64,000 nucleotides of DNA from an uncultured Spirochaetota bacterium (GTDB taxonomy: Bacteria; Spirochaetota; Spirochaetia; SZUA-6; Fen-1364). The DNA lies in contig CAWGAA010000001.1 in assembly GCA_963820525.1 (NCBI GenBank), positions 3,072,001 to 3,136,000 of the forward strand, given 5' to 3'. The notes beneath the pieces were generated by a model. That model did no database searches, was not told where the DNA came from, and saw only the letters and a program-made list of their open reading frames with translations. Shown here in pieces: positions 8,617 through 24,990 of this stretch (its first letter is position 1; each line of letters starts with the position of its first letter). The translations under genes were made by a program, and so were the position numbers.

Positions 8617-10540
8617 CCAATCTTCGACAGTTTGGCCCCCTTAAAAAGTGCATTCCCCTCGAATTTGCGGGGAATTTGAAGGTTTTTTTACAACTGGACC
8701 ACTTTATGTAGTGCCACGGAATTGGCAGTTTATGAAGAAAATGCTTGCACAGATGGCCTCTTCATGGTAGTATCCGTAGAGGGGGAGGCAGGCAATGTTC
8801 GTCCGCATCAAGAACTCGCACGGATACAAGTACCTTCAGATCGTTGAAAGCAAGCGTGAGGGCAAAAAGGTCAAACAACGTGTCCTCACCACCCTCGGCC
8901 AACTGGATGCACTCACCGCATCAGGCAAGATCGATGACCTCACCCGATCGCTGGCGAAGTTCTCCTCGATTCGAACGATCATCGATGCTCACCGCGAGGG
9001 CACCATCCAAGCGCACCGCACACTGTCCATCGGTCCCGCCCTTCTCTTCGACCGATTGTGGCAGCAGTTGGGGATCAAAGAGGCGATAAAGGGCCAAGTG
9101 GCCGCTCGCCCATGGCGCTTCTCCCTGGAACGGGCGATCTTCCTCACCGTCCTGCACCGCCTCTTCGATCCGGGAAGCGACCGCGCGGCAGAGCGCTGGA
9201 AGGAGGATTTCCAGATCAGCGGGACAGAGGGAATCGAGCTTCATCACCTCTACCGCGCCATGGGCTGGCTGGGAGAACAGAGCATCCAGCTCGGCCATGA
9301 TGCGCGAAGCCTGCGCTGCCGAAAGGACCTCATCGAAGAGGAGCTTTTTCGCCGTAACCGCGATCTGTTCAGCGAGTTGGAGCTGGTGTTCTTCGACACC
9401 ACGAGCCTGTACTTCGAGGGGCAAGGGGGAGAAAGCCTGGGACAGTACGGGCACAGCAAGGACCACAGACCCGACCTGAAACAGATGGTGGTCGGCGCGG
9501 TGCTGGACGGCACTGGGCGGCCGATCTGCTGCGAGCTGTGGCCAGGGAACCTCACCGATGTCACCTCCCTTATCCCGGTGGTCCAACGACTGAAGAGCCG
9601 CTTCGCAATCGCTTCGGTGTGCGTGGTGGCAGACCGCGGGATGATAAGCGCAGAGACGATCGAGAAACTTGAAACTGATGAGCTTGGCATGTCCTACATC
9701 CTTGGAGCGCGCATGCGCAAGGACAAGACGGTGCGCGATGAAGTGCTTCCTTCCTCTGAGAAGTTCCAAGTAGTCACAGGAGAGAAGAAGAAGCCTGGGG
9801 ATCCCTCCCCCCTATCGGTGCGGGAGCAGTGGGTGGGGGAGAAGCGTTACGTGGTCTGTTACAACGACGATCAGGCCCGAAAGGATGCCGCGGACAGAAA
9901 GGCCATCGTGGAGTCTTTGAAAGAGAAGCTCAAAAGCGGGGACAAGAGCCTCGTGGGCAATAAGGGCTACAGGCGATACCTGAAGTCCGCGGGAAAGGAG
10001 CACTTCACCGTCGACGAGGCCAAGCTCGCGAAGGAGCAGCTGTTCGACGGCATGTGGGTGCTGCGCACCAATACCGCGTTTGCCGCCGCGGATGTGGCAC
10101 TGAAGTACAAGCAGCTATGGATGGTGGAATCGATATTCCGTTCGGCCAAGAGTCTTCTGGAGACCCGCCCTATCTATCACAAAGTTGACGACACTATCCG
10201 GGGGCATGTGTTCTGCAGTTTCCTCGCGCTTGTTCTACGAAAAGAGCTGGAAACGAGACTTGAGAAGCACGGGGCCAAGCTGGAGTGGGCGGATATCAAT
10301 AGGGACCTTCGAGCACTGCAGGAAGTGGAAGTGGAAATGCATGGCAAGAAGCTGTATCTGCGCACCGACCTTCGGGGGGTATGCCACACGGTATTGCAGG
10401 CTGCGGGTGTCGCGGTGCCGCAGACGGTTCGCGAATGATCGCCATGCTAGGGGAAGTCGCGCTGTAGTGCCAAAGAAATTCCGTCGGCTTCTAATTCCTT
10501 ACGGGGCAAGTACTTCATTTTTCAAACTGTCGAAGATGGG
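8617..10540 (+). mobile_element. IS1634-family insertion sequence
   Basis: 18-bp terminal IRs CCAATCTTCGACAGTTTG / CAAACTGTCGAAGATGGG (1 mismatch); 5-bp target duplication CTAGA at 8612-8616 and 10541-10545. Confidence 0.9.
8795..10438 (+). CDS. IS1634-family DDE transposase
   Basis: YLQIVES...KVKQR N-terminus, FFDTTSLYFEG, GHSKDHRPDL, VADRGM, VESIFR..K...LETRPIYH. Confidence 0.92.
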   Translation: MFVRIKNSHGYKYLQIVESKREGKKVKQRVLTTLGQLDALTASGKIDDLTRSLAKFSSIRTIIDAHREGTIQAHRTLSIGPALLFDRLWQQLGIKEAIKGQVAARPWRFSLERAIFLTVLHRLFDPGSDRAAERWKEDFQISGTEGIELHHLYRAMGWLGEQSIQLGHDARSLRCRKDLIEEELFRRNRDLFSELELVFFDTTSLYFEGQGGESLGQYGHSKDHRPDLKQMVVGAVLDGTGRPICCELWPGNLTDVTSLIPVVQRLKSRFAIASVCVVADRGMISAETIEKLETDELGMSYILGARMRKDKTVRDEVLPSSEKFQVVTGEKKKPGDPSPLSVREQWVGEKRYVVCYNDDQARKDAADRKAIVESLKEKLKSGDKSLVGNKGYRRYLKSAGKEHFTVDEAKLAKEQLFDGMWVLRTNTAFAAADVALKYKQLWMVESIFRSAKSLLETRPIYHKVDDTIRGHVFCSFLALVLRKELETRLEKHGAKLEWADINRDLRALQEVEVEMHGKKLYLRTDLRGVCHTVLQAAGVAVPQTVRE

Positions 10541-10615: not shown

Positions 10616-11224
10616 TTATTGTTGGGGCTTGTAGATGAAGGGTCCATCACTATCTTTATATATTTTGGTAAATTCAGGACCAATAGGAATGAGATATTTC
10701 TTGCTTTTCCTATACTCTGTCTTGGACGCAGTTTCTCTACAAACGAGTTGGGCAATTCTTGTTCCAGGATAAAGTGCGATAGGAACATTTGAGATATTCG
10801 CGAGTTCAAGAGTAATGCATCCCTTGAAACCTGGTTCAATAGTGACGGCTGTTGCAATTACTAGACCTATGCGCGCTATCGAAGATCTCCCTTCGATGGA
10901 AGCTTCGATATTTGCTGGGAGCCCTATATATTCAAACGTTGAGCCAAGCACCATTGTTTGCGGGTGGAGGTAGAACGGCGTTCCAAAAGGAACGACGACC
11001 TCTGTTTGTATAGACTTGATCTTTTCTTTGTCATGCATAAGAGATTTCGGATCAATTGCATTAATGTTTTCAATTCGAAATATAATGAATTGATTGGAGA
11101 GACGAAGATCAATTCCTATTTGATTGATCTGGAGATCACGGTCAAGCAATGGAGTTACTACGAGTTTACTCACATCGGACCGGTTAAGATATTCAATCAA
11201 TTCATTCTTAGACAAGGTGCTCAT
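10616..11224 (-). CDS. dcd: dCTP deaminase (trimeric dUTPase fold)
   Basis: IDLRL, EGRSSIARIGL, IEPGFKGCITLEL, RIAQL. Confidence 0.88.
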   Translation of the reverse strand: MSTLSKNELIEYLNRSDVSKLVVTPLLDRDLQINQIGIDLRLSNQFIIFRIENINAIDPKSLMHDKEKIKSIQTEVVVPFGTPFYLHPQTMVLGSTFEYIGLPANIEASIEGRSSIARIGLVIATAVTIEPGFKGCITLELANISNVPIALYPGTRIAQLVCRETASKTEYRKSKKYLIPIGPEFTKIYKDSDGPFIYKPQQ

Positions 11225-12530
11225 CAGCTGGACCTTTCGAATTCTGATACTCCGAGTCTACATAACTTGAAAAGAGAGACTTAAGAAGTAGACGCATTAG
11301 TATTTGATAATTCGTGATAAACTCATCACCTTTCGATATTTGATCGATCTTTTGGTAATATATCCATCCGGCAAGAATAATATCCGCCATTCCCACAGGT
11401 TTGCCGTGCAATTCATTAGCCGGAATGATATCGTCAAGCTTCAGGTACAATTCGTCGATTTGATTAGGATTGAGATAGTACTTTGGGACTTGGCTCTGAG
11501 CATAGGATATAATATCGGGAAGAGATGCCTTAAAAAGCTTGATCTCCTCTGCAATATCAGTCAGAGCTTTTTGATCCTCATTATCAGAAAGGTACTGCTC
11601 GATGTCCTGCAGATATCTTTTATAGTACTTTGAGCATTCGGACTTAGAGGTAGCTACGGGGGCCATCCTTCCGTCAATCTTTAAAATCTCTTCATATAGT
11701 ACTCTTATACGATACTTGATTGGCGGATAATAATTAGTAAATCTGCTGGGTAATTCTATTTTGCCTTCAAATATGGATATAAAATCTAAAGCAAATAGCA
11801 TCGAAGGGCCAAAGATAAGATATCCACAAATGTCTGAAAGAATCTCACGATACATACCTTCAAGTATCTTCATGCCTTCTATGGTCTTTTCATATGGACG
11901 GAATAGATCAGCGGGAAACTTCTTTCGGTAGTAGGTGCTCAGATGAACGTTCTGATCTAAAATCAGTTTCTTTGCTTCAGGTGTTTCTTTCCATCTATTA
12001 TGGTAGAAATGACCCAATTCATGACCGATCACCGAATAGAGAAGAACATTGGTCTTCTCGAGATAAGGAAACGAAAAGACATGAATTTTCTGAGTGGAAA
12101 ATAGGCTGCTAATCTCTTGTGCTCGAGTCGGGAATATGGTAAGTAGCACATTGCTTAAGGGTCTGATAAGATCGTCTGTCATAACGGAATAGTTAAAATG
12201 CCATTGCGGCCTGAATAAGAGTAGATAGTCGGTTCCAAATTGCTCCTTAAGCATGCGATCAAGATATGGAATAACACTCCATGGAATATTTGCAGTTGAT
12301 GCCCGTTCTATATAGCGAACACTAGGTATGAATCTGGTCGAAATGAATATGAACAAAACCTTGTATGTTGATTCCTCAATCTCACCAAAGTGATCAACAA
12401 AATACTGGATGAACTTCTTGTAGCTGTCTATTGCAAGCACACAGGATTGGTTATAAAAATCAACGGTCTTGATTTCATCGAGATAGTTTCTAGCGCTAAT
12501 GAGCTTTCTATATAGCTTATTCTCAATCAT
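11208..12530 (-). CDS. Hypothetical 440-aa protein with zincin-like HEXXH motif
   Basis: VIGHELGHFYH plus downstream EILSD...FGP; overlaps the dcd start by 17 bp. Confidence 0.75.
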   Translation of the reverse strand: MIENKLYRKLISARNYLDEIKTVDFYNQSCVLAIDSYKKFIQYFVDHFGEIEESTYKVLFIFISTRFIPSVRYIERASTANIPWSVIPYLDRMLKEQFGTDYLLLFRPQWHFNYSVMTDDLIRPLSNVLLTIFPTRAQEISSLFSTQKIHVFSFPYLEKTNVLLYSVIGHELGHFYHNRWKETPEAKKLILDQNVHLSTYYRKKFPADLFRPYEKTIEGMKILEGMYREILSDICGYLIFGPSMLFALDFISIFEGKIELPSRFTNYYPPIKYRIRVLYEEILKIDGRMAPVATSKSECSKYYKRYLQDIEQYLSDNEDQKALTDIAEEIKLFKASLPDIISYAQSQVPKYYLNPNQIDELYLKLDDIIPANELHGKPVGMADIILAGWIYYQKIDQISKGDEFITNYQILMRLLLKSLFSSYVDSEYQNSKGPADEHLV

Positions 12531-12547
12531 TTGTTGCGCGTGATTCT

Positions 12548-13004
12548 TTACGCATACTGAAGGGAAGATTGGCTATGCGAAAGTACGTTATAGTTTTCTG
12601 AGTAGATTTTGCTGATCTTCTCAAAGAAATCTTGGAGGTCTGTCGAGGCCTGCCCCTTGTAAAATTTGCCTAGGATTGAGATCAAAATCAGCGAGTTGCT
12701 CTCTAATCTGCGTAAAGTAGTTTTTGAGGGAATTGAGCTTTTCTCTGTTTAGCGGAGTTGTCAGGCTTTCCGTAATCTCAATGACGTCTTTGAGATTTGG
12801 GACGAATTGAAAAACACCCGTAATATCAGATTGATATATATCGACGCCAAGTGTGTCCAGTGATCTAATTAGCTGATCTAAGAATGCTAAACCTTCTTTT
12901 AAGTAGGCTTTAGAGGTTGGAGATAGTGGCGTTTTTGAAGTTATAAGGGTGTGTCGAATGTTATCAAAAATAACCTGAAGTCGAAATTCTTCAAGATTTT
13001 CCAT
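12548..13004 (-). CDS. Small helical hypothetical protein (probable frameshift near 12665)
   Basis: RBS GGGGAGG + ATG at 13004; an alternative frame FYKGQASTDLQDFFEKISKIY... continues to a stop at 12548, just upstream of the next gene. Confidence 0.6.
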
Positions 13005-13072
13005 GATCTGCCCCTCCCCTAATATATGTCCATTTATACCACTTCGGAGCACTCACTGCAAATACTTTTTTC

Positions 13073-13079
13073 GCATAAC
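13073..13079 (-). other. Isolated GTTRRRY-like core site starting the distal cassette
   Basis: Minus strand GTTATGCGAAA matches the GTT-N4-RRAA start of the other four cassettes. Confidence 0.55.
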
Positions 13080-13115
13080 ATTGTATTAAACTGCATAGGA
13101 CTCTGGCGCAATGGC

Positions 13116-13249
13116 CTATAGCGTCCTGCAAATATGTGACGCGGCCCTGAGGCCAACAAGGCCGAAGGGCCGTGTGGCGGAGCGGCGCGCTGCAGCGCCG
13201 CGGAACCCAAGGCGCCTACTGGCGCCGATGCACATATTTGCTGTTATGT
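13116..13249 (-). repeat. attC-like site A (one core degenerate, GTT to GCT)
   Basis: Arms GCAAATATGTG/CACATATTTGC, branched GC-rich interior closely similar to sites B and C; cyclase-like gene stop TAA lies in the inverse core. Confidence 0.8.
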
Positions 13250-14149
13250 GGAGCCCTGCGGTTGCGTGCGCCTTGATCGTATCTTTGTAACTCTATCTAA
13301 TTCTTTTGTGTATTCGGGCCAACTTGTATTGAAAGGTTTACTCTCATCCTTATTTGAAATGAAAGGATAGTGCAACTGACCCATTGTGGAGTTGATGTAC
13401 TCTTCAAGGTACTCCAGCAGTGTTACCTCACTCTGCGGAGTCGTGCCAGCCAACTCCATTTCTAGTTCGTTCAGTTTGTTATGCAGGTCGATCCAGATGA
13501 CTGGGTATTCCTTGTTTCCCAAGACGCCTTTCAAAACGACTTTGTTCTGACAAAAAAGTCGAATGTCATTTCTTCGAAGGGTCAGGAAGTTGTCCCTCAT
13601 CAAAAGTATGGCAAGCTCGACGGATATCACGAATTTACCAATTTCCGCAAATTTGGAGATTCTAAATCCGATGTCAATGGATTTTCCGATGAACTCTGTT
13701 CTTTCACTCTCTACTCTGGAGTTGTCAACAGGAGTATTCCCGGTCCACGCAGTTCCCTTTATCTTGAGCTCACTGGTCTCATTGAATCTCGCGATTGCCT
13801 TCCTAAATACATTGATGTACCACAGTATCAACGAATATTGGCTATCTTCAGCAGGCTTCACTTCTCGGAACGATTCAATGATGCTTATGAAAAACAGCAG
13901 CTCGTCACCATTGATTTTCCATTGAGAAGGAACGGGCAGCGTGAGTTCTCTCTTTTTGCCTGCATTGACCCTTATAGCAGCTCGACTGCATTCTTCTTTC
14001 AGTATTTGAGAAAATTCGCTGTAGAAGTCGCTAAGTGATACAGTCCAATCGCGATCCTGGTATTTTCGCTGAGTCGAATCAATTACGTCAACGCTCAGGA
14101 AGAGGAAAAAATCCTCTTTATTGACTTCTACAGGTTCATGTGGGCGCAT
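13244..14149 (-). CDS. Divergent class III nucleotidyl cyclase-like protein (single-gene cassette)
   Basis: FLSVDVIDST (first metal Asp), WKINGDE (second Asp), FIGKSIDIGFR (GxxVNxAxR-like), LKG; RBS GGAGG just inside the cassette end. Confidence 0.65.
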   Translation of the reverse strand: MRPHEPVEVNKEDFFLFLSVDVIDSTQRKYQDRDWTVSLSDFYSEFSQILKEECSRAAIRVNAGKKRELTLPVPSQWKINGDELLFFISIIESFREVKPAEDSQYSLILWYINVFRKAIARFNETSELKIKGTAWTGNTPVDNSRVESERTEFIGKSIDIGFRISKFAEIGKFVISVELAILLMRDNFLTLRRNDIRLFCQNKVVLKGVLGNKEYPVIWIDLHNKLNELEMELAGTTPQSEVTLLEYLEEYINSTMGQLHYPFISNKDESKPFNTSWPEYTKELDRVTKIRSRRTQPQGST

Positions 14150-14177
14150 CCATAGACCTCCTAGATCGCAGGGTTCC

Positions 14178-14307
14178 ACATAACGTCCCGCAAGTATACG
14201 ACTTGGCCCGAGGCCAACATGGCCGAGGGCCATGTGGTGGAGCGGCGCGCTGCAGCGCCGCGGAGCCCAAGCCGCCCGCCAGGGCGGCGAAGCACATATT
14301 TGCTGTT
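14178..14307 (-). repeat. attC-like site B (interrupted at its GTT by IS1182)
   Basis: Plus strand ACATAAC-GTCCC-GCAAGTATACG...CACATATTTGC-T-GTT; core continues as GTTAGGT at 16025. Confidence 0.85.
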
Positions 14308-16024
14308 GATTCTGTAGGAAAAGCCACGCGCCTACTTTACGCTATTTGATATCCAGCGCACAATAGCTTCATGGCGCGGTATAAGGATCATAATCAGGAT
14401 CAAGGCGAGTTTATTGTCGTCCAGTTCAGCGAGCAACTGCTTATGGATACCTTCGAATACACGCTCAATCACCTGATCAACGAGAAAATAGATTTATCAG
14501 CGCTCGATTCAAAGTATAAGAACGATCTTACCGGTGCTCCTGCATATGATCCTCGGGTTTTACTGAAAATCATTCTTTTCGCCTACTCCAGAGGCATATT
14601 TTCATCACGACGGATCATGGAGCTTTGCGAGACGAATATCATAGCCAAAGCGCTTTCGGCAAACTCCATCCCGCATTTCACGGTCATAGCGGATTTCATC
14701 TCATCGATGAAGGATGAAATCGCCGGCATATTTCTGAAAATCCTCATGGTGTGCCAGGAAATGGAGCTCATCGGCGGAAAGCTGTTTGCGATTGACGGAT
14801 GCAAGCTGCCGTCCAACGCGTCCAAAGAATCGAGCGGCACCTTCAGGGATCTCAAAAGGAGAAAAGAAAAACTTGAAAGAACGGTAAAACTGCTCATTCA
14901 AAAGCATACTGTAACCGACAGAGCTGAAACCGCATCAGGATCCGAAGTTTCGCCAAAGAAGAAAGCCATTGATAGGATCGACTCAAAGATCAAGCACATC
15001 GAGGACTTCCTTAAAACAGAAACGCCGAAACAGGGCAACCGTGGCAAGGAAATACAGTCGAATATCACGGATAACGATAGCGCAAAGATCAAGACTTCTC
15101 ACGGAATGATCCAGGGGTATAACGGGATCGCCCTCGCGGATGAACAAAACCAGGTCATTATAGCCACCGAAGCCTATGGGAAAGGGCAAGAACATGGGAC
15201 ATTCAAGCCCGTTCTTGAAATGGCGGAAGAGAATCTGAAAGCCATCACCGACAAGGAAGAACCTCTTTCAGGAAAGACCGTACTTGCGGACACGAATTAC
15301 TTCTGTGAAGAAAACCTAAAAACAGCCGCGGATAAGAAAATCGAGGCGATCATCCCGGACTACAACTTTCGAAAACGAGACGAGCGCTTCGTGGACAGGA
15401 AAGATCATTCGGGTATCGAGTATAAGTTTGGATTTCAAAATTTCACATATGATGAGAAAACAAACACGTATACATGTCCCAACGGGAAAACACTGAAACA
15501 TAGAGGACATGCAATACTTCATGGATCTTCGGGGCATCGTTATCAATCCAAAGCGTCCGACTTTAAGGGGTGTCGGTTTACAAATAAATGCTTTCATCGC
15601 AAAAAGAATAGCAGCGGCAAGCGGACACTCTTTATAGATGACAAGGATAATTCCACCAATTATTCGGCACAAATGATCCAGAAGATCGACCGGCCGGAGG
15701 TCAGGGATTTATATTCAAGACGGATGGCAATCATCGAACCAGTGTTTGCGAATATCACATTCCATAAGAGACTGAACAGATTCACTCTGAGAACGAAAGC
15801 GAAAGTGAATATTCAATGGCTGTTATATTGCATGGTTCATAATATAGGAAAGATTTCAAAGGCGATGTCTGGAGCGAATGCATGATGGAAAAGAAAATGC
15901 ACACCGATTGTCCGATGATCTATATCGATAGAGTAGTTTTCGCTTTCTGATCATTCATAAATCGTTTTTGAATCGAGTTTGAAGGAGAACTGTTGTCTTT
16001 TGGGCTATATTTTCCTACAGACTC
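14308..16024 (+). mobile_element. IS1182-family insertion sequence
   Basis: 15-bp IRs GATTCTGTAGGAAAA / TTTTCCTACAGACTC (1 mismatch), flanked by GTT on both sides. Confidence 0.88.
14371..15885 (+). CDS. IS1182-family transposase
   Basis: GAPAYDPRVLLKIILFAY..GIFSSR, AIDGCKL..NAS, ITDNDS, LADTNY, YTCPNGK, IEPVFANI. Confidence 0.92.
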   Translation: MARYKDHNQDQGEFIVVQFSEQLLMDTFEYTLNHLINEKIDLSALDSKYKNDLTGAPAYDPRVLLKIILFAYSRGIFSSRRIMELCETNIIAKALSANSIPHFTVIADFISSMKDEIAGIFLKILMVCQEMELIGGKLFAIDGCKLPSNASKESSGTFRDLKRRKEKLERTVKLLIQKHTVTDRAETASGSEVSPKKKAIDRIDSKIKHIEDFLKTETPKQGNRGKEIQSNITDNDSAKIKTSHGMIQGYNGIALADEQNQVIIATEAYGKGQEHGTFKPVLEMAEENLKAITDKEEPLSGKTVLADTNYFCEENLKTAADKKIEAIIPDYNFRKRDERFVDRKDHSGIEYKFGFQNFTYDEKTNTYTCPNGKTLKHRGHAILHGSSGHRYQSKASDFKGCRFTNKCFHRKKNSSGKRTLFIDDKDNSTNYSAQMIQKIDRPEVRDLYSRRMAIIEPVFANITFHKRLNRFTLRTKAKVNIQWLLYCMVHNIGKISKAMSGANA

Positions 16025-16049: not shown

Positions 16050-16547
16050 TTACCGATATGATTTTGCCATTTTATCCCTTTTCTGCAAAAATTCAGGTTC
16101 CAAATGTTTGGCTAATATTTTAACTATTAAAGATATAGCCTTATCTATATCTTTATAAATATCTGACTCCCAAATGCGAATGACATTCCAGCCGCTATGT
16201 ATTAATGATTTTGTGTTCTTAATATCTCTATCAATATTATTTTCGATCTTAGCAATCCAATATTTACTATTATAGCCCTTTATCAATTTCTTTCTTCTAA
16301 GATGCCAGTCTTTTCCATGCCAAAAATCTCCATCTACAAATACTACACATTTTTCTTTAGTAAATACTATATCAGGTATACCTGGCATAGTCCTCACATT
16401 TTTCCTATAGCGTAAACCGATTTTCCATAAATAATGACGAAGTAGTACTTCTGGCTTAGTATCCTTTTTCTTACTCGCTCCGCGTGCTTTAGCTGAGGCA
16501 TTTTCTGACTTTGGATATAATCCTTTAAATGATGCATTTTTATGCAT
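16050..16547 (-). CDS. vsr: Very short patch repair endonuclease
   Basis: DTKPEVLLR, PGIPDIVF, FVDGDFWHG, GWNVIRIWE. Confidence 0.92.
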   Translation of the reverse strand: MHKNASFKGLYPKSENASAKARGASKKKDTKPEVLLRHYLWKIGLRYRKNVRTMPGIPDIVFTKEKCVVFVDGDFWHGKDWHLRRKKLIKGYNSKYWIAKIENNIDRDIKNTKSLIHSGWNVIRIWESDIYKDIDKAISLIVKILAKHLEPEFLQKRDKMAKSYR

Positions 16548-16550
16548 GAT

Positions 16551-17540
16551 TTATCCAAATATCGCCTTATATAATCCCCCTAATTCTACAATCTCCATTT
16601 TTGATAATGGTAGAATATCAGTTAATTCTGACTTAAATCTAACATCGCTGACTTCTGCAGGAATGTTAGACGTAATTTGGGGAATTTCGATTGCATCATA
16701 TATACTAATAGTATTTAGAGCATTTGAGGAATCAAATCTTATGCGTATAGCATCTCTCCAATCTCTGCCTAAGCTCATCGTGATTATTTGTGAAATTCTT
16801 TCTTTTAATCTTTCTGATATATCCATACGCGAGGTTATTTTTTCCCAAAGATCTATGATGGAAAGGCCATTTGCTTTTTCATCTATCAGGAAAGAAACAA
16901 TCAGTATTCTATTGTTTTTCTTAGGAATTAATTGATCAAGATTGAAATTATGAATACGTATAGGACCTTTAGTCGATTTAACTTCTAATTGTTGTTCTCC
17001 ATTGACAAAGTCAAATAATTCATTCGGATCAGCGTGCCAAGCAGTTGCAGCTAAGTTAATATCGTGCGCATTAGCAATGAGAAATAGTTCACACCAAATG
17101 CCCTCAATAGAGCTTAATGGAGGAGCCTCCATTGATCTAAACAACTCAATTAGATTAGATATTATTAATAAAATGTCTATGTCTTTAGATTCCAAAGGCA
17201 TCAGTGAAATAATCCCAGATAACGCCCGCAAAAAGTATTCTCTTAATATCTGATCTGCTTTTGAGCATTTAATCATCGTGAGCCTTTCTGAAGCGATTGT
17301 TCCATCATTATTAATAATTTGGCACATACAACTGGGACGAAATGAAAAATATTTGAATTCTCTTGGAGGAATAGAAAGCTCGTTTGAATGGCTTTTAGTT
17401 GAGAATAAGAGAGCGGGATTTCCATAAGAATCTTTTGCAATATGAATATTGGGATGCCCAGGCAATACAAGTGCTGAATAGAATTCTCCAGAATCTTTAA
17501 TTTCTTTTAGATTAAGAAATAGTGAAAACAAGTCAATCAT
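16551..17540 (-). CDS. PD-(D/E)XK motif protein (DUF4420-like)
   Basis: GIWCELFLI, W...LFDF...LEVKST; follows the Z1 gene. Confidence 0.8.
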   Translation of the reverse strand: MIDLFSLFLNLKEIKDSGEFYSALVLPGHPNIHIAKDSYGNPALLFSTKSHSNELSIPPREFKYFSFRPSCMCQIINNDGTIASERLTMIKCSKADQILREYFLRALSGIISLMPLESKDIDILLIISNLIELFRSMEAPPLSSIEGIWCELFLIANAHDINLAATAWHADPNELFDFVNGEQQLEVKSTKGPIRIHNFNLDQLIPKKNNRILIVSFLIDEKANGLSIIDLWEKITSRMDISERLKERISQIITMSLGRDWRDAIRIRFDSSNALNTISIYDAIEIPQITSNIPAEVSDVRFKSELTDILPLSKMEIVELGGLYKAIFG

Positions 17541-19692
17541 TATTGTTCTCAGTATGTATAAGAATATCATCTTGCTGAGTAAGCCTTATAGCTACTGCGG
17601 GTACATTTTCATAATAATGATTATCATCTTCGATACGAAAAAAATGTATCTGAATCGTTGGCAAATCTTTCTGGAAAAATGCGCGATCGCCAGGATAAGA
17701 ATCAGCTCCAGAGCTTGAACGGCCTTGAAAAAGCTGCGGGATTATTCCTTTTGAAAGACGCCGCGTTCGCTTTAGGCCATAATGCATGAAATAGACTAAA
17801 CATTTCAAATTATTATCGAGATCAAGCATTGATTTTAGATTGCAATTAACATAGCAAAGGCCTATTGCATCTTCTTCATCGAGATATGATAGAGGTGCCA
17901 GTACATTCTCGAAAACTTCATTTAGAAAAGTGAAAGCCAATTTGTGTTGTGGAAACCTAGCATTTTCTTTGAATTGCATGTTTTCAAGAAGCTTTATAAG
18001 CTTAGCGTTGTGAAGACCTTCGCTGGGCGAATTATGCGGAGCTCGCGGTGCAAACCAATTATCCCCCAAATGTGGCCTTAGATAAGGTGTTGATAATATA
18101 TTATATCTTGTGGGTGCTAAGCTATGATCAAGATAAAAAAGTCTTCGCCATTCTTTTAAAGGGCGACCCCGATGAGCTTCTAACCGATTTCGCATATCTT
18201 GTTCATGCCTAACATAAGCTATATATGCGTACTTTACATCTGGGTGTAAATAAACTCTGCAAAAACCAAAATGTCCGCTATGATATCCAAAAAATCGCGC
18301 ACGTTGTTGTATCGTATCTGCTGTCCAACCACCTGGACCTCTAGGCATATAAGTTACAGTTAAACCTTTTACAGTATATCCACGACCTAGTTTCTCGCCA
18401 CCTACAAGAATATGTGAATATGAGTTTTGCCATTGAACTTCACGCCCTTCTATAGAATTAACTAAGGTTACAGTAGTTTGATTTATAGCTACAGGTAATT
18501 TGCCCTCAATTTGATTGAATGGCGGCAATGAAGAACAGGTACGACTTAAATCATCATAAGCGGTTCTAAAATCAGCCATTAATTCAATACGATCTGGTTC
18601 ATTCATAGCTTGTAATATTCTATGCCAGTTGTGCTTTATGGCTTCTATCCAATCATAATAATGACGATGTATAGCTATTTTTTTTGAAGCATGAACTAGC
18701 ATTGATCGATGCTCTTCAGAGTGAGAAATACGTCCAGCTGCTACGCCAATAAAATAAACTTGTAGCGCATGTAATAAAGACTCTGGAGGCTCTTCTGGCA
18801 TATGCTCATCATCAAAAAGATATGCTTGTGCAATTGTTTCAACATATATGCTGTTTTCAGCAAAAAACAGATCCCCACCTATGTATCCTTCACCAGGTGA
18901 AACAAGCTCTGCAAAATCTGCTGATAATGAATCTATTCTAGTAATTAGCAATGGAGCTTGCGGAGTTGCAGTGTATTGCAAGAAGGTATGAGATGGGAGG
19001 GCTTTTCTAAGCCCATCAATACTGACATAAGTTGCACTAGCATTTGGCTCATTCGGGCGTGTGTTCAAACTGGCCTGATCCGCTTCATCATCGAATATAA
19101 TAGAAGGTATTCCACCCAGATCGATTGAGCTTAGCAACTGTGTCAAATTATTTAAATGCCTGTAATTCTTCATTACAGTAATGAAAAGTGTTCGTCGGTC
19201 TTCATCAACATATTGATTACTTCGCCATTCTTCAATTAATGCTACGATAGCAGGTAATTCATTATCTTTTCGTGGGTTTTTTAACATATGCCACGTCCAA
19301 TCAGGCGATGCTGAACGCAAATGAGATTCCATTCTTTCACTATTTTGTGTTACGAGATTAGTTGTTATTCCAGCGATTAGAATAATAATTCTATAGCCAT
19401 TATCTTTTGCTAAAGCAGAAATAGCAGTCATCGATGCAGTTTTGCCACTTTGAACATACCCACATACAAGTCCAATCCCGGGATTCTCAGATGAAGTCGG
19501 TGGATTGCATTTAGATAGAATACGATGTGCCTCATCAATTAAGCGGTTTGCATCTTCCCCTGAGGGTAGAATCCCTTGAGTTATGAAATAATTCCTAAGT
19601 GAGTTTGTGACATTCCCAATTATTGGAACCCAATTACCATTCGAATCATGAATATTTATGATTTTAATAATTTCATTAGAGTTAATAGCCAT
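17533..19692 (-). CDS. Z1 domain-containing SF2 helicase-like/endonuclease subunit
   Basis: GYVQSGKT, DDEADQAS, YTATPQA, SMLVH, LGRGYT, DTIQQRARFFGY. Confidence 0.9.
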   Translation of the reverse strand: MAINSNEIIKIINIHDSNGNWVPIIGNVTNSLRNYFITQGILPSGEDANRLIDEAHRILSKCNPPTSSENPGIGLVCGYVQSGKTASMTAISALAKDNGYRIIILIAGITTNLVTQNSERMESHLRSASPDWTWHMLKNPRKDNELPAIVALIEEWRSNQYVDEDRRTLFITVMKNYRHLNNLTQLLSSIDLGGIPSIIFDDEADQASLNTRPNEPNASATYVSIDGLRKALPSHTFLQYTATPQAPLLITRIDSLSADFAELVSPGEGYIGGDLFFAENSIYVETIAQAYLFDDEHMPEEPPESLLHALQVYFIGVAAGRISHSEEHRSMLVHASKKIAIHRHYYDWIEAIKHNWHRILQAMNEPDRIELMADFRTAYDDLSRTCSSLPPFNQIEGKLPVAINQTTVTLVNSIEGREVQWQNSYSHILVGGEKLGRGYTVKGLTVTYMPRGPGGWTADTIQQRARFFGYHSGHFGFCRVYLHPDVKYAYIAYVRHEQDMRNRLEAHRGRPLKEWRRLFYLDHSLAPTRYNILSTPYLRPHLGDNWFAPRAPHNSPSEGLHNAKLIKLLENMQFKENARFPQHKLAFTFLNEVFENVLAPLSYLDEEDAIGLCYVNCNLKSMLDLDNNLKCLVYFMHYGLKRTRRLSKGIIPQLFQGRSSSGADSYPGDRAFFQKDLPTIQIHFFRIEDDNHYYENVPAVAIRLTQQDDILIHTENNND

Positions 19693-21221
19693 TATTTTCC
19701 GCTTTTTTTAATAGGCCCAGATAAAGACCTTAGAATCTGATTTAAGTTTCTACGTATCGTTCCTGCTTGCCTAACGCCTGCTTCTCTTGCTGTAATTTCT
19801 GCGATTGCCAGGCCTGCAGCTAGCCGAGTAAATGGTATTATTTCATCTCCATCTGGCGAAACGAAACGGTCCATGAAGGGATGTGCTAGATTCATACGAA
19901 TATGAACTTCAATTTCTGATTTCTGCTTGTTATTTTGAGATAGCTCATACCATTCTTCATGCGATATATCATCAATAAGCTCAATTGTTATAGACCAATG
20001 CTTAAGTGCGTGATTTACTTCAATTTTAACAGATGTACTCTTAGCTTTTTCGTCTTTAGATTTTTCAAGCCTTGTAGCTAGTGGCTCATCTTTAGGCTTA
20101 TTATTTAATTGTTCTTCTATTATCGGAGATAGGTGCTGTGCAATTATATGAGTTGCATCTTCGGGTGCTTCGCTAATAACTTCCTGTATCATGTTGCTAT
20201 GAGCCCGATAATTTGCTGCTTGATCAAGTAATGGAATTGGTTTTGTATTTAACTCCGATTTTAGCCATTTTAATATATCATCTTCCCAATCTTCCCACTG
20301 AATACCATCTTTAGTATGACTAACAGAAAATCCCTGAACTTCAAGCTCTCCAATAAGTCGCTGATAAACAAATTTATTAGCTTTTCCAAAAATATATTCT
20401 GGACGGTAAGCTTCGCCACAACTGCCCTGTATTAATCTCCTTCGCCTAAATAATGCAAAGCCAGCATTTGTAACACTTCCACGTGCAAGAATTCCTGCCC
20501 ATCCTTTAACGCTATGATCATTATTAAAAACCATATTAAAATTCTTTTGCCAAATTATTGGTTTATTGTCAGGAGTTGAATGATACGGTGCTTCAAGGAA
20601 AACAGGTGGTTCATAAATCAATGGAGTCCCATCTACTTTTATCTCTAATAAATTATCTCTGATAAACAAGCGATAAATGCTACCAAGATGATCCTTTATT
20701 TTGTCTAGCGTCCGTCCTTTTGGTTTAACCAGCAAATTACTAAGAGTTATTACAGTAAAGTGCTTCTGTTCATTAACTCGATTCTCTGTTGGCTGCAATT
20801 TTTCGATATTATTCTTAACTATCATTGGTATGTCAAATACTATTGACCTCTCTACATTTTCACCAATCGCTTTTGTTCTTACTATCCAAGTTCTCGCGAA
20901 CCAGCTAGCGGCTGCTTTCATGCCAAGACCAAATTCAGACAATCCAGAAGTATCTGGCGGGATTGCAGCTGGAAGAAAGGCTCTTGCATAATCACTTATG
21001 GCTATACCAGCTGCATTATCGCGAATCTCAATATAATCATCATGCAATTCTATCTCAACTAATAGCTTATAATACTTACCATCCAATTTTCTTAGGGCAG
21101 TAATATTTGAACAGCCACTTTGTAGGGAATTATCGACAAATTCTGCTAGCGCAAACCACGGCTTGTAATTCAGTCTTGCAAATGAAGCATACATAGCTAC
21201 TTCAGGTCTGATTATTATCAA
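19692..21221 (-). CDS. GHKL (MORC/MutL/HSP90-like) ATPase
   Basis: ALAEFVDNS, IRDNAAGI, EFGLGMKAA Bergerat-fold motifs. Confidence 0.88.
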   Translation of the reverse strand: MIIIRPEVAMYASFARLNYKPWFALAEFVDNSLQSGCSNITALRKLDGKYYKLLVEIELHDDYIEIRDNAAGIAISDYARAFLPAAIPPDTSGLSEFGLGMKAAASWFARTWIVRTKAIGENVERSIVFDIPMIVKNNIEKLQPTENRVNEQKHFTVITLSNLLVKPKGRTLDKIKDHLGSIYRLFIRDNLLEIKVDGTPLIYEPPVFLEAPYHSTPDNKPIIWQKNFNMVFNNDHSVKGWAGILARGSVTNAGFALFRRRRLIQGSCGEAYRPEYIFGKANKFVYQRLIGELEVQGFSVSHTKDGIQWEDWEDDILKWLKSELNTKPIPLLDQAANYRAHSNMIQEVISEAPEDATHIIAQHLSPIIEEQLNNKPKDEPLATRLEKSKDEKAKSTSVKIEVNHALKHWSITIELIDDISHEEWYELSQNNKQKSEIEVHIRMNLAHPFMDRFVSPDGDEIIPFTRLAAGLAIAEITAREAGVRQAGTIRRNLNQILRSLSGPIKKSGK

Positions 21222-22501
21222 ATCATATTCTCCTTAGCATGGCTTTTAGAAGGATATAAATTTTGCACAGTACTCCTTGGGCCGCGTCCGACACCAGGAT
21301 GATCAGAGTGATTTCCTTTAAGATAAAGGTATTTCTTTATGACCGGATAGCAACGAGAAGGAGGTGGACAATCCTCTCTATGAGGCGGCATTAATCGTAA
21401 AGTTAGTGGGATGCAATTTTCATTTAATAATTGCCTTCTTATTTCGAGGCCAAATAATTCTCCAATTAAGCAAGGCACTGCATTTCCTACTTGACGATGT
21501 GCTGAAGACCTATTTCCATAAATTTCATATCCATCAGGAAAAGTTTGTAAACGTGAGATTTCTTTGATACTTAGCAAGCGATTTCGCCAATGAAATGGAC
21601 CAGAAGCTGGTCCAGGACTAGCTTGTATGGTCCAAGACGGATACCTTTTTGATAATTTGAGTAGAAATGACCAGTACTTTGTCCTCCAGCCAAAAAGGGG
21701 GGTCCCATTACCACGATGAGTGTGCCATAGATAATTTTTTCCCTCAGGGATGCTTTTAATCAAATCTTTCCATTTTCCCCTAATTTGAAGGTCAGCAGAC
21801 CATTCATTTGTATCAAGATCACCAATTGCATCCCAGGAATTCCTATAAGGTTCAAGGCCGTCAGCATATCCACATATGGGAGAAGGCATATCGAGCATTT
21901 TTCCATTAATATCAGCGACAATAAAAATCCGTTTCCGTATTTGTGGAACACCATAATCTGCAGAGTTTATATAAAAGTCTTGTAGCTTATATTCAGTTCC
22001 TTTCTTTCTATTTATTCTTTCAATACCATCTTTAATTAATTCCAATCCAGATCTCTGCCTTCCATAAGCATTCCAAGATATCCCTTTTACGTTCTCGAGT
22101 AATATTACTCTTGGTAACGCTACCTCAACCACATTAAGAAAAGCTTGAAGTGTTTTTGTTCTCGGGTCACGTAAGCCAGCAGAGGTGCCATTAAACCAAT
22201 AGGTCGACTTTGAGAAAGGCTGACAAGGTGGTCCGCAAGAAAGTAGTGCGGTTTCTCCAGGTTGCAGGCCAACTTGTGATAATAGCTCAGAAGGATGAAT
22301 TCTAAAAATATCACCTGGATTGGTTAGAGTCCAAGAAGGATTATTCTTTGTTAATGTTTTTCTTGAGTCATCGTCAGCTTCGATACAGCCCTTAATACAA
22401 AATCCGGCATATTCTAGACCTAAATCCAAACCACCTGCTCCAGTGAATAATGATAAAACTAAATGTTCTGGTTTTTTTTTCTGCTTTAATCGTTTATTCA
22501 T
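21218..22501 (-). CDS. dcm: DNA cytosine-5 methyltransferase
   Basis: SLFTGAGG, GPPCQPFS, ENV, YGVPQ.RKR, RLQTFPD, QVGNAVP. Confidence 0.93.
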   Translation of the reverse strand: MNKRLKQKKKPEHLVLSLFTGAGGLDLGLEYAGFCIKGCIEADDDSRKTLTKNNPSWTLTNPGDIFRIHPSELLSQVGLQPGETALLSCGPPCQPFSKSTYWFNGTSAGLRDPRTKTLQAFLNVVEVALPRVILLENVKGISWNAYGRQRSGLELIKDGIERINRKKGTEYKLQDFYINSADYGVPQIRKRIFIVADINGKMLDMPSPICGYADGLEPYRNSWDAIGDLDTNEWSADLQIRGKWKDLIKSIPEGKNYLWHTHRGNGTPLFGWRTKYWSFLLKLSKRYPSWTIQASPGPASGPFHWRNRLLSIKEISRLQTFPDGYEIYGNRSSAHRQVGNAVPCLIGELFGLEIRRQLLNENCIPLTLRLMPPHREDCPPPSRCYPVIKKYLYLKGNHSDHPGVGRGPRSTVQNLYPSKSHAKENMI

Positions 22502-22896
22502 AATAAAAATGAATGGCTTCAATGGGTTTTTCAACGACCGCGGCCATGTACATATTGGATAAGACTTCAGCTATTGATATAGATTTAACGCTTGAATATT
22601 CCTTTAATGTCACCATATTGTCTTCAATAATCACCTTGATCACGGCATCGGTTTCAGTTGATTTGCGTTTACAGTTACCAGGATCGTGATCTATTCCCTC
22701 CTCTAGTTATGTAATATATCAGATCTTGACTATCATTGTACATTGTAAATTTTGGTCAATAGAAATCGGGACAATCACAAATCTCTACTGAGTTTATTAC
22801 TTAGCCTTGCAAGGATGTTTTTCATTATTGGGTAGAGCAAGAAACTGTCGTTGGTGACTGTTACATATGATACACACAAGTAGTGTTCTGCCTTTC

Positions 22897-23007
22897 ACCT
22901 AACGTTTCGAGCGTACACGACGTGGCCCGAGGCTAACAAGGCCGAGGGCCATGTGGCGGAGCCCGAGCCGCCCGCCATGGCGGCGAAGCGTGTACGCTCC
23001 GTTAGCT
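22897..23007 (-). repeat. attC-like site C
   Basis: Plus strand ACCTAAC-GTTTC-GAGCGTACACG...CGTGTACGCTC-C-GTTAGCT; perfect 11-bp arms; interior shared with A and B. Confidence 0.88.
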
Positions 23008-23015
23008 GAAGTGGA

Positions 23016-23536
23016 CTACGATCTTTTAAATCTTGTGGCATAAACTCTGCGTGGAAAATCGCCTTCTGCATACTCGGTTTTACTCGCATCTTTTACAATA
23101 TCTTCATTTGCGTACGCCTCTATTACTTCACCTATAAAAAGATTTTTATCTCCTGTTTCTATTTCTTGTTTAACTTTGCATTCAATATGAGCTACACACT
23201 CGGCAATAATAGGAGCTCTTACTTTTCGCGCTGGTTGTTGAGTTAATCCCGTTTCTCTAAATTTATCAAATTGATATCCTGAGTGCAAACCGCAATAATA
23301 TATTTTTGCTTTTAGCTGAGCGGGAGGAATATTTACAATAAATTCTTTATTACTTTTGATTAACTCATATGAAAAGGATTTGTTCCCTATGGCACAGGCT
23401 ATAAGTGGGGTCCCTTTGAGACAGGCATACAAAAGCTAACTGCGATGATATTTGATTTTATTTTTATCTCCCCGCAGGTTATTAAGAAATGTCTCATCGG
23501 CCACATAAATTCTAGATATTCGACATCAATATTCAT
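23016..23536 (-). pseudogene. Flavin reductase family protein cassette (one frameshift near 23410-23420)
   Basis: MNIDVEYLEFMWPMRHFLITCG...CMPVSK, then shifted frame PLIACAIG...EFIVNIP...HIECKV...GDKNLFIGEV. Confidence 0.8.
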
Positions 23537-23562
23537 TTTATCTAATCTCCCTTGTCCATTTC

Positions 23563-23757
23563 AGCTAACGTAAAGGGTTTACGACATGCCCCGTCCCGAA
23601 GGGCTGGCACAGGGGTTGCCCCGCAAAACATAGAAAAGAGTGTACCACACATCTTAGAGGACCGTAAGAAGATTTGATCTGCAAGCCCTGTGCCAGAGGG
23701 GCATGTGGCGAAGCCCGGAGCGACCGGAGGGAGCGGAGCGTAAACCCTATGTTGAAC
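23563..23757 (-). repeat. attC-like site D (long, different sub-type)
   Basis: Plus strand AGCTAAC-GTAAA-GGGTTTACG...CGTAAACCC-TAT-GTTGAAC; internal stems ACATGCCCC/GGGGCATGT and TGGCACAGGG/CCCTGTGCCA. Confidence 0.8.
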
Positions 23758-23787
23758 GAAGTCGCTCCGCCCGCGCTATGGGTTTTA

Positions 23788-24990
23788 TTACGCGCTGTTC
23801 CAATAACTTTCAGCGGTATTTTCCGGCGGGAGCTCAATAATCTGAATATTCGCGCTCTTGCAGCGGGGACATCTTTTTTCGATAGTCTCAGGCGCTTCCA
23901 AGAAAAAATCATACGATCGCTGTTGAGATTCTAGATCGATGCATAACAAACGACGGATGTATTTCAGATTCTCATTTTTGTGCCCGTTGCTCAAGAGGCC
24001 GTAAAATCGTATACGCTTGAATCCTTCCGGCAGCACATGCAGGAGAAATCTTCTCATGAACTCGGAGGCGCCAAGTGTCATTACCTTTTTCCGGTTTCTA
24101 TTCCTGTAGTCCTTCCATATAAAGCTCACGTTTCCGCCGGTGAAATTCAATATCCGTTTGTTGCTGATCGCTACCCGATGCGTATAGTGCCCTATATATT
24201 TCAGTACGCGTAACGGATTGGAAAACGGCTTTTTGGCGTAGACGATCCATTTTTTCGCATAACATTCATCCAACACCTTTGCAAACCCGGCTGTCTCTGC
24301 TGTCTTGCGTAACTTACCAAAGAAACTCAACTCTTTTGCTGCATATGCCTGTTTCAAATAATGCAGGTATTTACCTCTGAACAATCGATTGAGAATGTGT
24401 ATCGAGATAAAGAAGTTGTTCCTGCTTTCAATCCATGCGGATTTATCCCGGCTCAATCCCCCTCCGGTAACAATGCAGTGCAGATGTGGATGGTCAAGTA
24501 GGTTTTGGCTCCAGGTGTGGAGAATGGCGATAAATCCGATCTTCGCGCCGAGATTCTTCGGGTTTCCCGCGGCTTCTTGAAGAGTCTCGTTTGCGGCGTG
24601 AAAGAGAATGTCGTAGAGCACTCTTTTATTCTGGAGAATAAGGGAATTCAATACCGCCGGGACGGTGAAGACGATATGGAAATATTTTATGGGCAGAAGC
24701 TCTTGTGTCCGCTCGTAAACCCATTGCGCCTGCTTGCTCGCCTGGCATTTGGGGCAATGCCGGTTCCTGCATGAATTATAGGATATCTGTTCATACCCGC
24801 ATTCATGGCAAACAAGTTTATGGCCGCCCAATTTCGGACCGCGGCAGTTTATGATTGCGTTTACGACTTTCCAATGATCATAACTGATGCCTTTCAGTAA
24901 CTGGGTGCTTTGTCTGAAAACATCGGCGACTTCGAATTTGGGTCTTGGAAAAACCGTTGCCGCTTCAATATAGCCCATGCTGTATAACAA
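23788..24990 (-). CDS. IS91-family rolling-circle (HUH/Y2) transposase
   Basis: EVADVFR, SCRNRHCPKCQ zinc domain, HPHLH HUH motif, YIGHY tyrosine pair, RRFLLHVLP.GF.RIR.YG; exact start uncertain (24990 or 24978). Confidence 0.92.
   Translation of the reverse strand: MLYSMGYIEAATVFPRPKFEVADVFRQSTQLLKGISYDHWKVVNAIINCRGPKLGGHKLVCHECGYEQISYNSCRNRHCPKCQASKQAQWVYERTQELLPIKYFHIVFTVPAVLNSLILQNKRVLYDILFHAANETLQEAAGNPKNLGAKIGFIAILHTWSQNLLDHPHLHCIVTGGGLSRDKSAWIESRNNFFISIHILNRLFRGKYLHYLKQAYAAKELSFFGKLRKTAETAGFAKVLDECYAKKWIVYAKKPFSNPLRVLKYIGHYTHRVAISNKRILNFTGGNVSFIWKDYRNRNRKKVMTLGASEFMRRFLLHVLPEGFKRIRFYGLLSNGHKNENLKYIRRLLCIDLESQQRSYDFFLEAPETIEKRCPRCKSANIQIIELPPENTAESYWNSA

Follow-up and report, generated by a model that had tools for sequence, protein, structure and literature searches.

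A conserved three-gene module joining a zincin-like HEXXH protein to its own clade of dCTP deaminases: a candidate protease-gated conflict system in an uncultured Spirochaetota bacterium

Defence by deamination of deoxycytidine triphosphate (dCTP) has a precedent in the defensive dCTP deaminases, for which AvcD is a related name. The trio of genes described here lies in a 64,000-nucleotide (nt) stretch of the genome of an uncultured Spirochaetota bacterium (GenBank assembly GCA_963820525.1, contig CAWGAA010000001.1, positions 3,072,001 to 3,136,000; hereafter the window, whose own numbering is used below) and encodes a small helical protein (A), a HEXXH protein of 440 amino acids (aa) (B) and a dCTP deaminase (Dcd) of 202 aa (C). 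The defensive dCTP deaminase of Escherichia coli is a single chain of 576 aa that combines a kinase domain with a zinc-dependent cytosine-deaminase domain (Tal et al., bioRxiv 10.1101/2021.04.26.441389); this agrees with an earlier note on the window, written from the sequence alone, in which the known defensive deaminase was said not to have the trimeric Dcd fold. The trio is like the E. coli enzyme in its predicted deamination, and hence depletion, of dCTP and in being an accessory element carried in mobile DNA; it is unlike it in that the deaminase adopts the trimeric Dcd/dUTPase fold, that two further genes accompany it and that PADLOC has no match to it. The reading that we put forward, and to which we give a little less than an even chance, is that the trio is a protease-gated, dCTP-depleting conflict system of the anti-phage or abortive-infection type.

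The individual components have other relatives among described proteins. Housekeeping Dcds and bifunctional dCTP deaminase-dUTPases (2qxx; E. coli 1xs1; Methanocaldococcus jannaschii 1ogh) belong to the same hidden Markov model family as protein C and share its Ser/Arg/Glu core; unlike them, the Dcds linked to a HEXXH gene form a separate clade with insertions of their own and always follow, or are fused to, that gene. With the M48 peptidases (Ste24/ZMPSTE24, BepA, HtpX) protein B shares the gluzincin pattern of HEXXH plus a downstream Glu, and these enzymes are the best structural matches of its core, but B falls below the family thresholds and carries large extra helical domains. In Lit (Peptidase_U49, prophage e14), in the CapP-CapH pair of the cyclic-oligonucleotide-based antiphage signalling system (CBASS) and in ImmA/IrrE-type pairs, a metallopeptidase is tied to an output that is lethal or regulatory, and the trio is like these as an idea. 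Lit is a zinc-peptidase-gated immune module, annotated in E. coli as 'cell death peptidase Lit'; the HEXXH family (100 members against the single Lit sequence in hhalign) aligns with it over the 13-residue HEXXH helix only, at a probability of 1.9%. Unlike the peptidase-gated pairs, the small partner A has no helix-turn-helix (HTH) or other family match. Integron cassettes were reportedly described as carriers of defence systems by Darracq and colleagues in Science in 2025. Like such cassettes, the trio is preceded by an attC-type repeat, one that belongs to the integron family of this genome; unlike them, it lies in a window without an integrase and has an IS4-type transposase on its 3' side instead of an attC.

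The three genes are arranged as follows, from the upstream gene to the downstream one.

13004-12548, minus strand: gene for the small helical protein A, from the list of open reading frames (ORFs) and the alignment of homologues
12530-11208, minus strand: gene for the HEXXH protein B, 440 aa, from the ORF list and the invariant motif
11224-10616, minus strand: gene for the dCTP deaminase C, 202 aa, from matches to PF22769 and TIGR02274

All three are co-directional, and the HEXXH and Dcd genes share a 17-nt overlap. The G+C fraction at 11-13 kb is 0.376-0.389, against about 0.60-0.67 for the flanking chromosome, and the AT-rich island around the trio ends near 27 kb of the window. A scan for promoters and terminators did not rise above shuffled sequence (6 promoter-like sites against a mean of 6.6). 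The earlier note had seen here three tightly linked AT-rich genes, a 440-aa protein made zincin-like by HELGH and a distal E..SD, and a 3' end of that gene overlapping a dUTPase-fold Dcd with catalytic motifs, and each of these observations is borne out by the layout above and by the results that follow.

That these genes belong together is seen from their recurrence. A word-based search of 5.8 billion proteins found 40 relatives of the HEXXH protein, all of them unnamed or 'hypothetical' and without a Pfam domain, and a search with a 20-member profile found 2,429 representatives (clusters at 50% identity) at E <= 0.001, with 1,279 at 1e-10 and 451 at 1e-30. Ten loci were located in species-representative genomes, assigned to Treponema, Croceivirga, Bacteroidales, Aminicenantes, Scalindua (two), Zixibacteria, Thermoanaerobaculia, Verrucomicrobiia and one unclassified organism; a Dcd homologue lies directly 3' of the HEXXH gene on the same strand in nine of them, and the contig of the tenth stops 215 nt past the match. 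The same holds for metagenomes: among 80 loci, the Dcd is directly downstream in all 57 that continue (57/57), the remaining 23 stopping at most 307 nt past the last aligned HEXXH residue. The metagenome set contains the near-duplicates L029/L004, L048/L009, L067/L010, L047/L046 and L037/L034. The same gene order in every related locus that is long enough goes far beyond chance, and a lack of conserved linkage, which the earlier note had named as grounds for abandoning its proposal, did not occur.

The two larger proteins also occur as a single chain, in no fewer than ten proteins or frames altogether. The fusion at L008 is 746 aa long and is encoded by DNA without a stop or an N; others are found at L034 (730 aa), L037 (731 aa) and L039 (cut by the contig end), and in G071, a genome of the same order as the source genome, as a 730-aa frame. 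Among the best 150 representatives of the HEXXH family, six are 713-737 aa long, and all six have a C-terminal PF22769 domain. A word-based search for fused forms of 771-2200 aa found none, the real fusions (713-750 aa) falling outside that range. Proteins B and C, being always adjacent, translationally coupled and repeatedly fused, probably act as one unit, and it is this adjacency and fusion that suggest that the peptidase may control the Dcd.

The distribution of the module is sparse. HEXXH homologues occur in one of 100 relatives of the source genome (the fused copy in G071), in none of 400 other genomes sampled across the phylum (E <= 1e-10) and in none of 40 relatives of the Croceivirga genome (G002). 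Since the module, though widespread, is rare, patchy and common to several phyla, it has been transferred horizontally; A, B and C make up one conserved, co-evolving and mobile unit. A 13-kb metagenome contig (L086) carries two divergent HEXXH-Dcd copies, at L086:3345-5556 on the plus strand and L086:8761-10781 on the minus strand, with a SocA/Panacea antitoxin-domain gene between them.

Protein C matches PF22769 (2.1e-33, 116 bits where the cut-off is 27) and TIGR02274 (139.8 bits where the curated cut-off is 92.8), which places it among the dCTP deaminases, and the Pfam scan returned families of the DCD/dUTPase fold only, without a zinc-dependent cytosine-deaminase or kinase domain. Its closest solved relative is the Dcd of Mycobacterium tuberculosis (2qxx, 3.6e-26), to whose core S114, R118 and E140 align. 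These three residues, which we take to be the catalytic Ser, Arg and Glu by analogy with the E. coli enzyme, are present in the window protein and are invariant, together with G120 and E98, in 54/54 linked Dcds. Judged by its conserved residues, the linked Dcd is catalytically intact.

It is not the housekeeping enzyme of this genome (G000), which has a second dcd at C1:2637101-2637610 (190.9 bits) as well as a dut-like gene. In a maximum-likelihood tree, a single branch separates 53 linked from 29 free Dcds (support 95/71, and 92% of 200 bootstrap trees), the free set being drawn from the phylum of the source genome, from relatives among the flavobacteria and from the second copies of G005 and G009; rows shorter than 165 aa, including the second copy of G008, were dropped. 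The window Dcd groups with linked Dcds of other phyla, beside those of Croceivirga and Treponema (Bacteroidota and Spirochaetota), whereas the housekeeping paralogue groups with a Dcd of its own phylum. The linked clade has a 9-residue insertion (window residues 65-73), a 3-residue insertion (14-16) and a C-terminal extension, present in 0/29 free Dcds. A grouping of the Dcd with housekeeping dcd, the other outcome that the earlier note had named as counting against its proposal, is therefore absent from the tree, in which the linked clade stands apart from the free enzymes.

Within the conserved core, the linked clade also has residues of its own, N143 in 54/54 and W116 in 51/54 (the window protein has Ile there), and protein C matches the phage-type dCTP deaminase family phrog_1663 (3.5e-37). 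Both features could be accommodated by a role in which the Dcd supplies deoxyuridine triphosphate (dUTP) for DNA modification, that is, for uracil-containing or further modified DNA, or in which it removes modified dCTP; the cytosine-methylase cluster found in the same attC-bounded region (see below) points in the same direction. Against it, the trio has no conserved neighbour that encodes a glycosylase, a polymerase, a thymidylate-synthase-like protein or a transferase, and no copies are present in phage records or viral contigs; we consider this role very improbable.

Protein B has no family match in Pfam, NCBIfam, PHROGs or PADLOC. Its motif in the window protein is H170-E-L-G-H174, with E229...S232-D233 further on, and across 122 diverse representatives only H170, E171, H174, E229, D233 and R274 are invariant, a set that contains the HEXXH and the downstream Glu ligand expected of M48 enzymes (H170, E171, H174, E229). 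Peptidase_M48 is also the sole Pfam family matched repeatedly, by 13/100 members at E <= 1 (best 0.0088) and over the motif helix only; the window protein itself scores 11.9 bits against PF01435 (E 0.21), below the gathering score of 20.3. A lookup in the Atlas returned unnamed clusters, with the nearest named U49/M48 entry at a score of 0.78, which serves as a lead only.

The AlphaFold2 (AF2) model of the full-length protein has a mean predicted local distance difference test (pLDDT) score of 87.5. With it, Foldseek found nothing at E <= 0.001, its top rows being unrelated membrane proteins, and the VIA-align matches were mostly helical bundles, the M48 entries reaching no more than Z 6.1 and 5.5. 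Because the full-length search was swamped by helical bundles, the core (residues 70-300, 43-row alignment) was folded alone, giving a pLDDT of 85.1. All top 21 VIA-align rows for this core are zinc metallopeptidases, headed by ZMPSTE24 (Z 8.4, root-mean-square deviation (rmsd) 7.4 over 169 residues), Ste24p (Z 7.8) and BepA (Z 7.1, rmsd 3.7 over 138 residues); neprilysin/PepO, DPP III, M1 aminopeptidases, PprI (PprI/IrrE, Z 5.0), minigluzincins, BlaR1 and thermolysin rank lower. The top 10 Foldseek matches of the core are all ZMPSTE24/Ste24 (best E 0.026, probability 0.90). The scores are individually weak, at a level that allows no more than a common arrangement to be claimed, and their ranking is consistent; taken together, the models support a gluzincin fold nearest M48 for the core of B (~70-300), without membership of M48. 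The protein is laid out as an M48-like core between N- and C-terminal helical domains. Reading the sequence by eye, we saw no signal peptide or long hydrophobic segment, and B is presumably a soluble, cytoplasmic protein.

The small gene is listed as an ORF at 12621-13052, and its likely start is the ATG at 13004, which follows the purine-rich stretch GGGGAGGGG and gives a product of 127 aa. In the assembly the gene is read in two frames, the first covering 13004-12621 and the second continuing to a stop at 12548, and homologues from L001 (150 aa) and L002 (156 aa) align to the first frame and then to the second. A short-read contig spanning 12599-12750 (public run X1, freshwater sediment metagenome; a single contig at a depth of 3.3, from a run that may be the source sample of the window assembly) lacks one base at 12669. 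With that base removed the small gene becomes one frame of ~151 aa, like its homologues. The frameshift is thus probably an assembly error, an indel near 12669, and a true pseudogene is less likely in view of the short-read contig.

Of the 48 loci with at least 520 nt upstream, 42 have an ORF of 100-230 aa whose end abuts the HEXXH start, and at least three of the six exceptions (L041, L054, L090) have an upstream ORF outside the limits of this rule. The small proteins are evolving fast, with a mean column identity of 21% and zero invariant residues; their best-conserved part is a C-terminal FFxxL-like motif, located beyond the frame change. No match to A was found in Pfam, NCBIfam, PHROGs or PADLOC. 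A complex of three chains, with the small protein as the scored partner, was predicted from the intact homologues of a Treponema metagenome-assembled genome (L001) in place of the window proteins. The A-B score was 0.69, against 0.00 for the best of three controls; in a rough calibration (custom alignments, three chains) this value was attained by 116/157 solved complexes and by 2/215 mismatched pairs. The runs had at least 56% of contacts in common, with a partner pLDDT of at least 78, and every confident contact of the small protein is made to B, within residues 53-69, 127-139 and 193-219 (L001 numbering). The helices in question lie to either side of the catalytic one, which carries HEXXH at 173-177 in this homologue, and protein A is accordingly predicted by the models to bind protein B next to its catalytic helix.

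A mechanism can be proposed in which C is the effector, converting dCTP to dUTP, or to deoxyuridine monophosphate (dUMP), and so starving replication of dCTP. B and A together would hold C silent until a trigger arrives, upon which B would cleave A, or an inhibitory segment, and C would be released. The trio would in this way probably make up a single enzyme that can be switched; the physical association of B with C, switching by proteolysis, a trigger and a part in immunity are all inferred parts of this scheme. A conflict role is favoured by the presence of an extra copy in genomes that already possess dcd, by a very patchy distribution, by locations in cassettes and islands, by the defence genes near some loci, by the rapid evolution of A and by the precedent of defence by dCTP deamination. 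Somewhat more tentatively, we suggest that the trio may represent an immune system of a kind not yet described, with a trimeric-fold Dcd, an enzyme of housekeeping type and not a CDA-fold deaminase, recruited as the nucleotide-depleting effector under the control of an M48-like metallopeptidase and a fast-evolving small sensor or inhibitor. In the literature searched, no Dcd-fold deaminase was described together with a metallopeptidase, though newer defence catalogues or the supplements of discovery papers could list one. The earlier note likewise did not recognise a named system, and in this it agrees with the PADLOC and literature searches. If the defence role is true, nucleotide-depletion immunity would have arisen at least two times from unrelated deaminase folds, and a protease gate would be a further means of turning a core metabolic enzyme on or off. 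Whatever the role, what is new is a HEXXH family of 2,429 representatives (E <= 0.001) that none of Pfam, NCBIfam, PHROGs and PADLOC contains, its strict coupling to a Dcd clade of its own and a small partner that is predicted by modelling to bind it.

Several results weigh against a conflict system. PADLOC-DB 2.0.0 yielded 0 families for each trio protein at E <= 0.01; the check by PADLOC that the earlier note had proposed therefore came out negative, no model matching any of the three. No relatives of the HEXXH protein were found in IMG/VR contigs, PLSDB plasmids or GenBank phages. The peptidase activity, the B-C contact and the trigger are putative; the scores behind the assignment of B as a peptidase are weak (best Z 8.4; Foldseek E 0.026), and the complex was predicted for the Treponema homologues rather than for the window's own proteins. 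Five of the 10 other genomes (G001-G004, G010) have no Dcd over the cut-off besides the linked one. Finally, the neighbours of the trio within ~5 kb were surveyed at 34 loci, made up of the window, 8 loci from genomes and 25 from metagenomes; selected neighbours were also compared with PADLOC, four near-duplicates were dropped, and one locus had no neighbour of at least 100 aa. Recognised defence genes were found near the trio in only 7/34 loci and deoxynucleotide or pyrimidine genes in 6/34, both as raw counts without a background rate, by which neither association is established; the remaining loci have ordinary genes, such as dnaA-dnaN, ftsA-ftsZ and def-fmt. The neighbourhood comparison that had been proposed for the HEXXH protein therefore upheld its linkage to dcd (9/10 and 57/57), while defence genes were nearby in the minority of loci just given. 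Of the earlier interpretation as a whole, the conserved unit, the zincin-like B and the non-housekeeping Dcd stand, and its defence reading is only partly supported.

Much of this evidence would fit the chief alternative, a regulated module of nucleotide metabolism that provides an accessory route from dCTP to dUTP or dUMP for thymidylate supply, with B and A as allosteric regulator, chaperone or assembly factor; in a variant, B with its zincin fold could instead hydrolyse the product nucleotide in a metal-dependent way. The genes of deoxynucleotide (dNTP) and pyrimidine metabolism adjacent to six loci encode ribonucleotide reductase (L002), deoxynucleoside kinase (L008), dut (L030), cmk (L069), dUTPase_2 (L096) and dUTPase_2 plus PyrI (L097), and most other neighbours are housekeeping genes. 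The strict conservation of the catalytic residues, the genomes in which the linked Dcd stands alone and the lack of PADLOC matches and of phage or plasmid copies count for the same alternative, as do the fusions, since metabolic enzymes that act in sequence or are regulated together are often fused. Its difficulty is the extreme patchiness (1/100, 0/40, 0/400), together with the very fast evolution of the small subunit, the two divergent copies side by side on the L086 contig, the other Dcd already present in G000, G005, G008 and G009, and the setting of the window trio as AT-rich cassette DNA amid transposases and a cluster resembling restriction-modification (RM) systems. Furthermore, only 8 of the 41 genomes around G002 (Croceivirga) have a Dcd over the cut-off, so that being the sole Dcd does not amount to a housekeeping role there. 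The argument from a sole Dcd to a housekeeping role was dropped as decisive on this ground. On balance we regard the metabolic role as rather unlikely; if it is true, this would be, to our knowledge, the first dedicated protein regulator of Dcd, none having been found in the literature searched.

In two of the loci with nucleotide genes these immediately precede the trio: at L002:3933-6998 they encode a class I ribonucleotide reductase pair that includes an ATP-cone, and at L008:5917-7098 the deoxynucleoside kinase. The defence neighbours are, in the window, the Dcm/Vsr/Z1 cluster described below; at L005, a PDC-S14/RAMA gene; at L061, a type I restriction endonuclease; at L083, a type IIG enzyme; at L054, type I RM and PtuA/PtuB-like genes; and at L086, the Panacea antitoxin domain and the second copy of the system. 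At L058:7769-13017, a gene for a CapP-like peptidase and an HTH_3 gene lie upstream of the trio, PDC-S11 (2.2e-135) directly downstream and an E1-E2-like gene nearby; this region is a dense defence island.

The surroundings of the trio in the window bear on how it was acquired. Two features flank it.

~13100-13245, minus strand: attC-like, GC-rich imperfect palindrome upstream of the trio, a cassette boundary (direct-repeat families D2, D3 and D5)
8795-10438, plus strand: IS4-type DDE transposase gene (PF01609, 7.2e-13), abutting the 3' end of the trio

By alignment, the upstream repeat has two more copies in the window, at ~14174-14307 and 22893-22989. The family, 134 nt long, has at least 17 matches genome-wide, of which 11, all oriented alike, form an array at C3:831229-891441 alongside a broken integron integrase gene (intI), present as two pieces at C3:825829-826608; three further copies lie at C1:2067847-2094246, and two intact intI genes score over the curated cut-off, at C1:1954228 and C1:682092. 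The repeat upstream of the trio thus belongs to a family arrayed beside an integron integrase, as expected of an attC. On the other side, between 10440 and 10616 (3' of the Dcd gene), there is no copy of the repeat, the IS4-type transposase being found there instead, and there is no intI within the 64-kb window; the trio therefore lacks the attC on both sides and the integrase-attached array by which an integron cassette is defined, and the window is at best a cluster of attC sites without an integrase. The cassette core site reported in the earlier note holds up to this extent, through the attC-like family arrayed beside a broken intI, and finds no counterpart downstream. As the best explanation, we infer that the module was acquired here as an integron-type cassette, on top of the housekeeping dcd.

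Such a setting would also suit an addiction module, similar to a toxin-antitoxin system, that stabilises mobile DNA: the unrestrained Dcd would be the toxin, the peptidase and small partner the labile antidote, and phage defence a side effect at most. Zinc-peptidase components occur in known systems of this kind, and the compact three-gene architecture with overlapping genes, the cassette or transposon context in the window and at L044, L054 and L078, and a fast-evolving small partner that is predicted to bind B are all compatible with it. Against this, many copies reside in stable core-gene neighbourhoods, no DNA-binding domain or HTH was detected in any of the trio proteins by the Pfam and NCBIfam scans, and toxicity of the Dcd is only putative. 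We therefore consider addiction clearly unlikely as the main function of the trio, and keep the dCTP-depleting conflict system as the preferred reading. Mobile-element genes were found near the trio in five loci altogether (the window, L034, L044, L054 and L078).

The repeats divide this part of the window into segments, which hold the trio, a single 329-aa ORF, and an IS1182-type transposase gene together with a cluster of five genes. The 329-aa ORF (13244-14233, minus strand) has attC-like repeats on either side and constitutes a single-gene cassette; it matches phrog_18024, of unknown function (4.9e-29), and has no Pfam, NCBIfam or PADLOC match. Its true start is probably further in, since the listed N-terminus enters the repeat. 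The IS1182-type transposase lies at 14371-15885, and the five genes at 16050-22534 on the minus strand encode a Vsr-like nicking endonuclease, a DUF4420 protein of the PD-(D/E)XK type, a Z1 helicase-like protein, a GHKL HATPase_c_3 protein and a C-5 cytosine methylase (Dcm). The Z1-domain protein matches PADLOC Helicase_II (7.2e-59) and MzaC (3.5e-22), and the Dcm/HATPase/Z1/DUF4420/Vsr cluster looks like a multi-component modification-dependent or RM-like system. The cluster and the IS1182-type transposase are together located between two attC-like repeats. Just past the third of these repeats, the region 23016-24990 holds a flavin-reductase-like gene (138 aa), followed by a transposase of the IS91 family (Y2).

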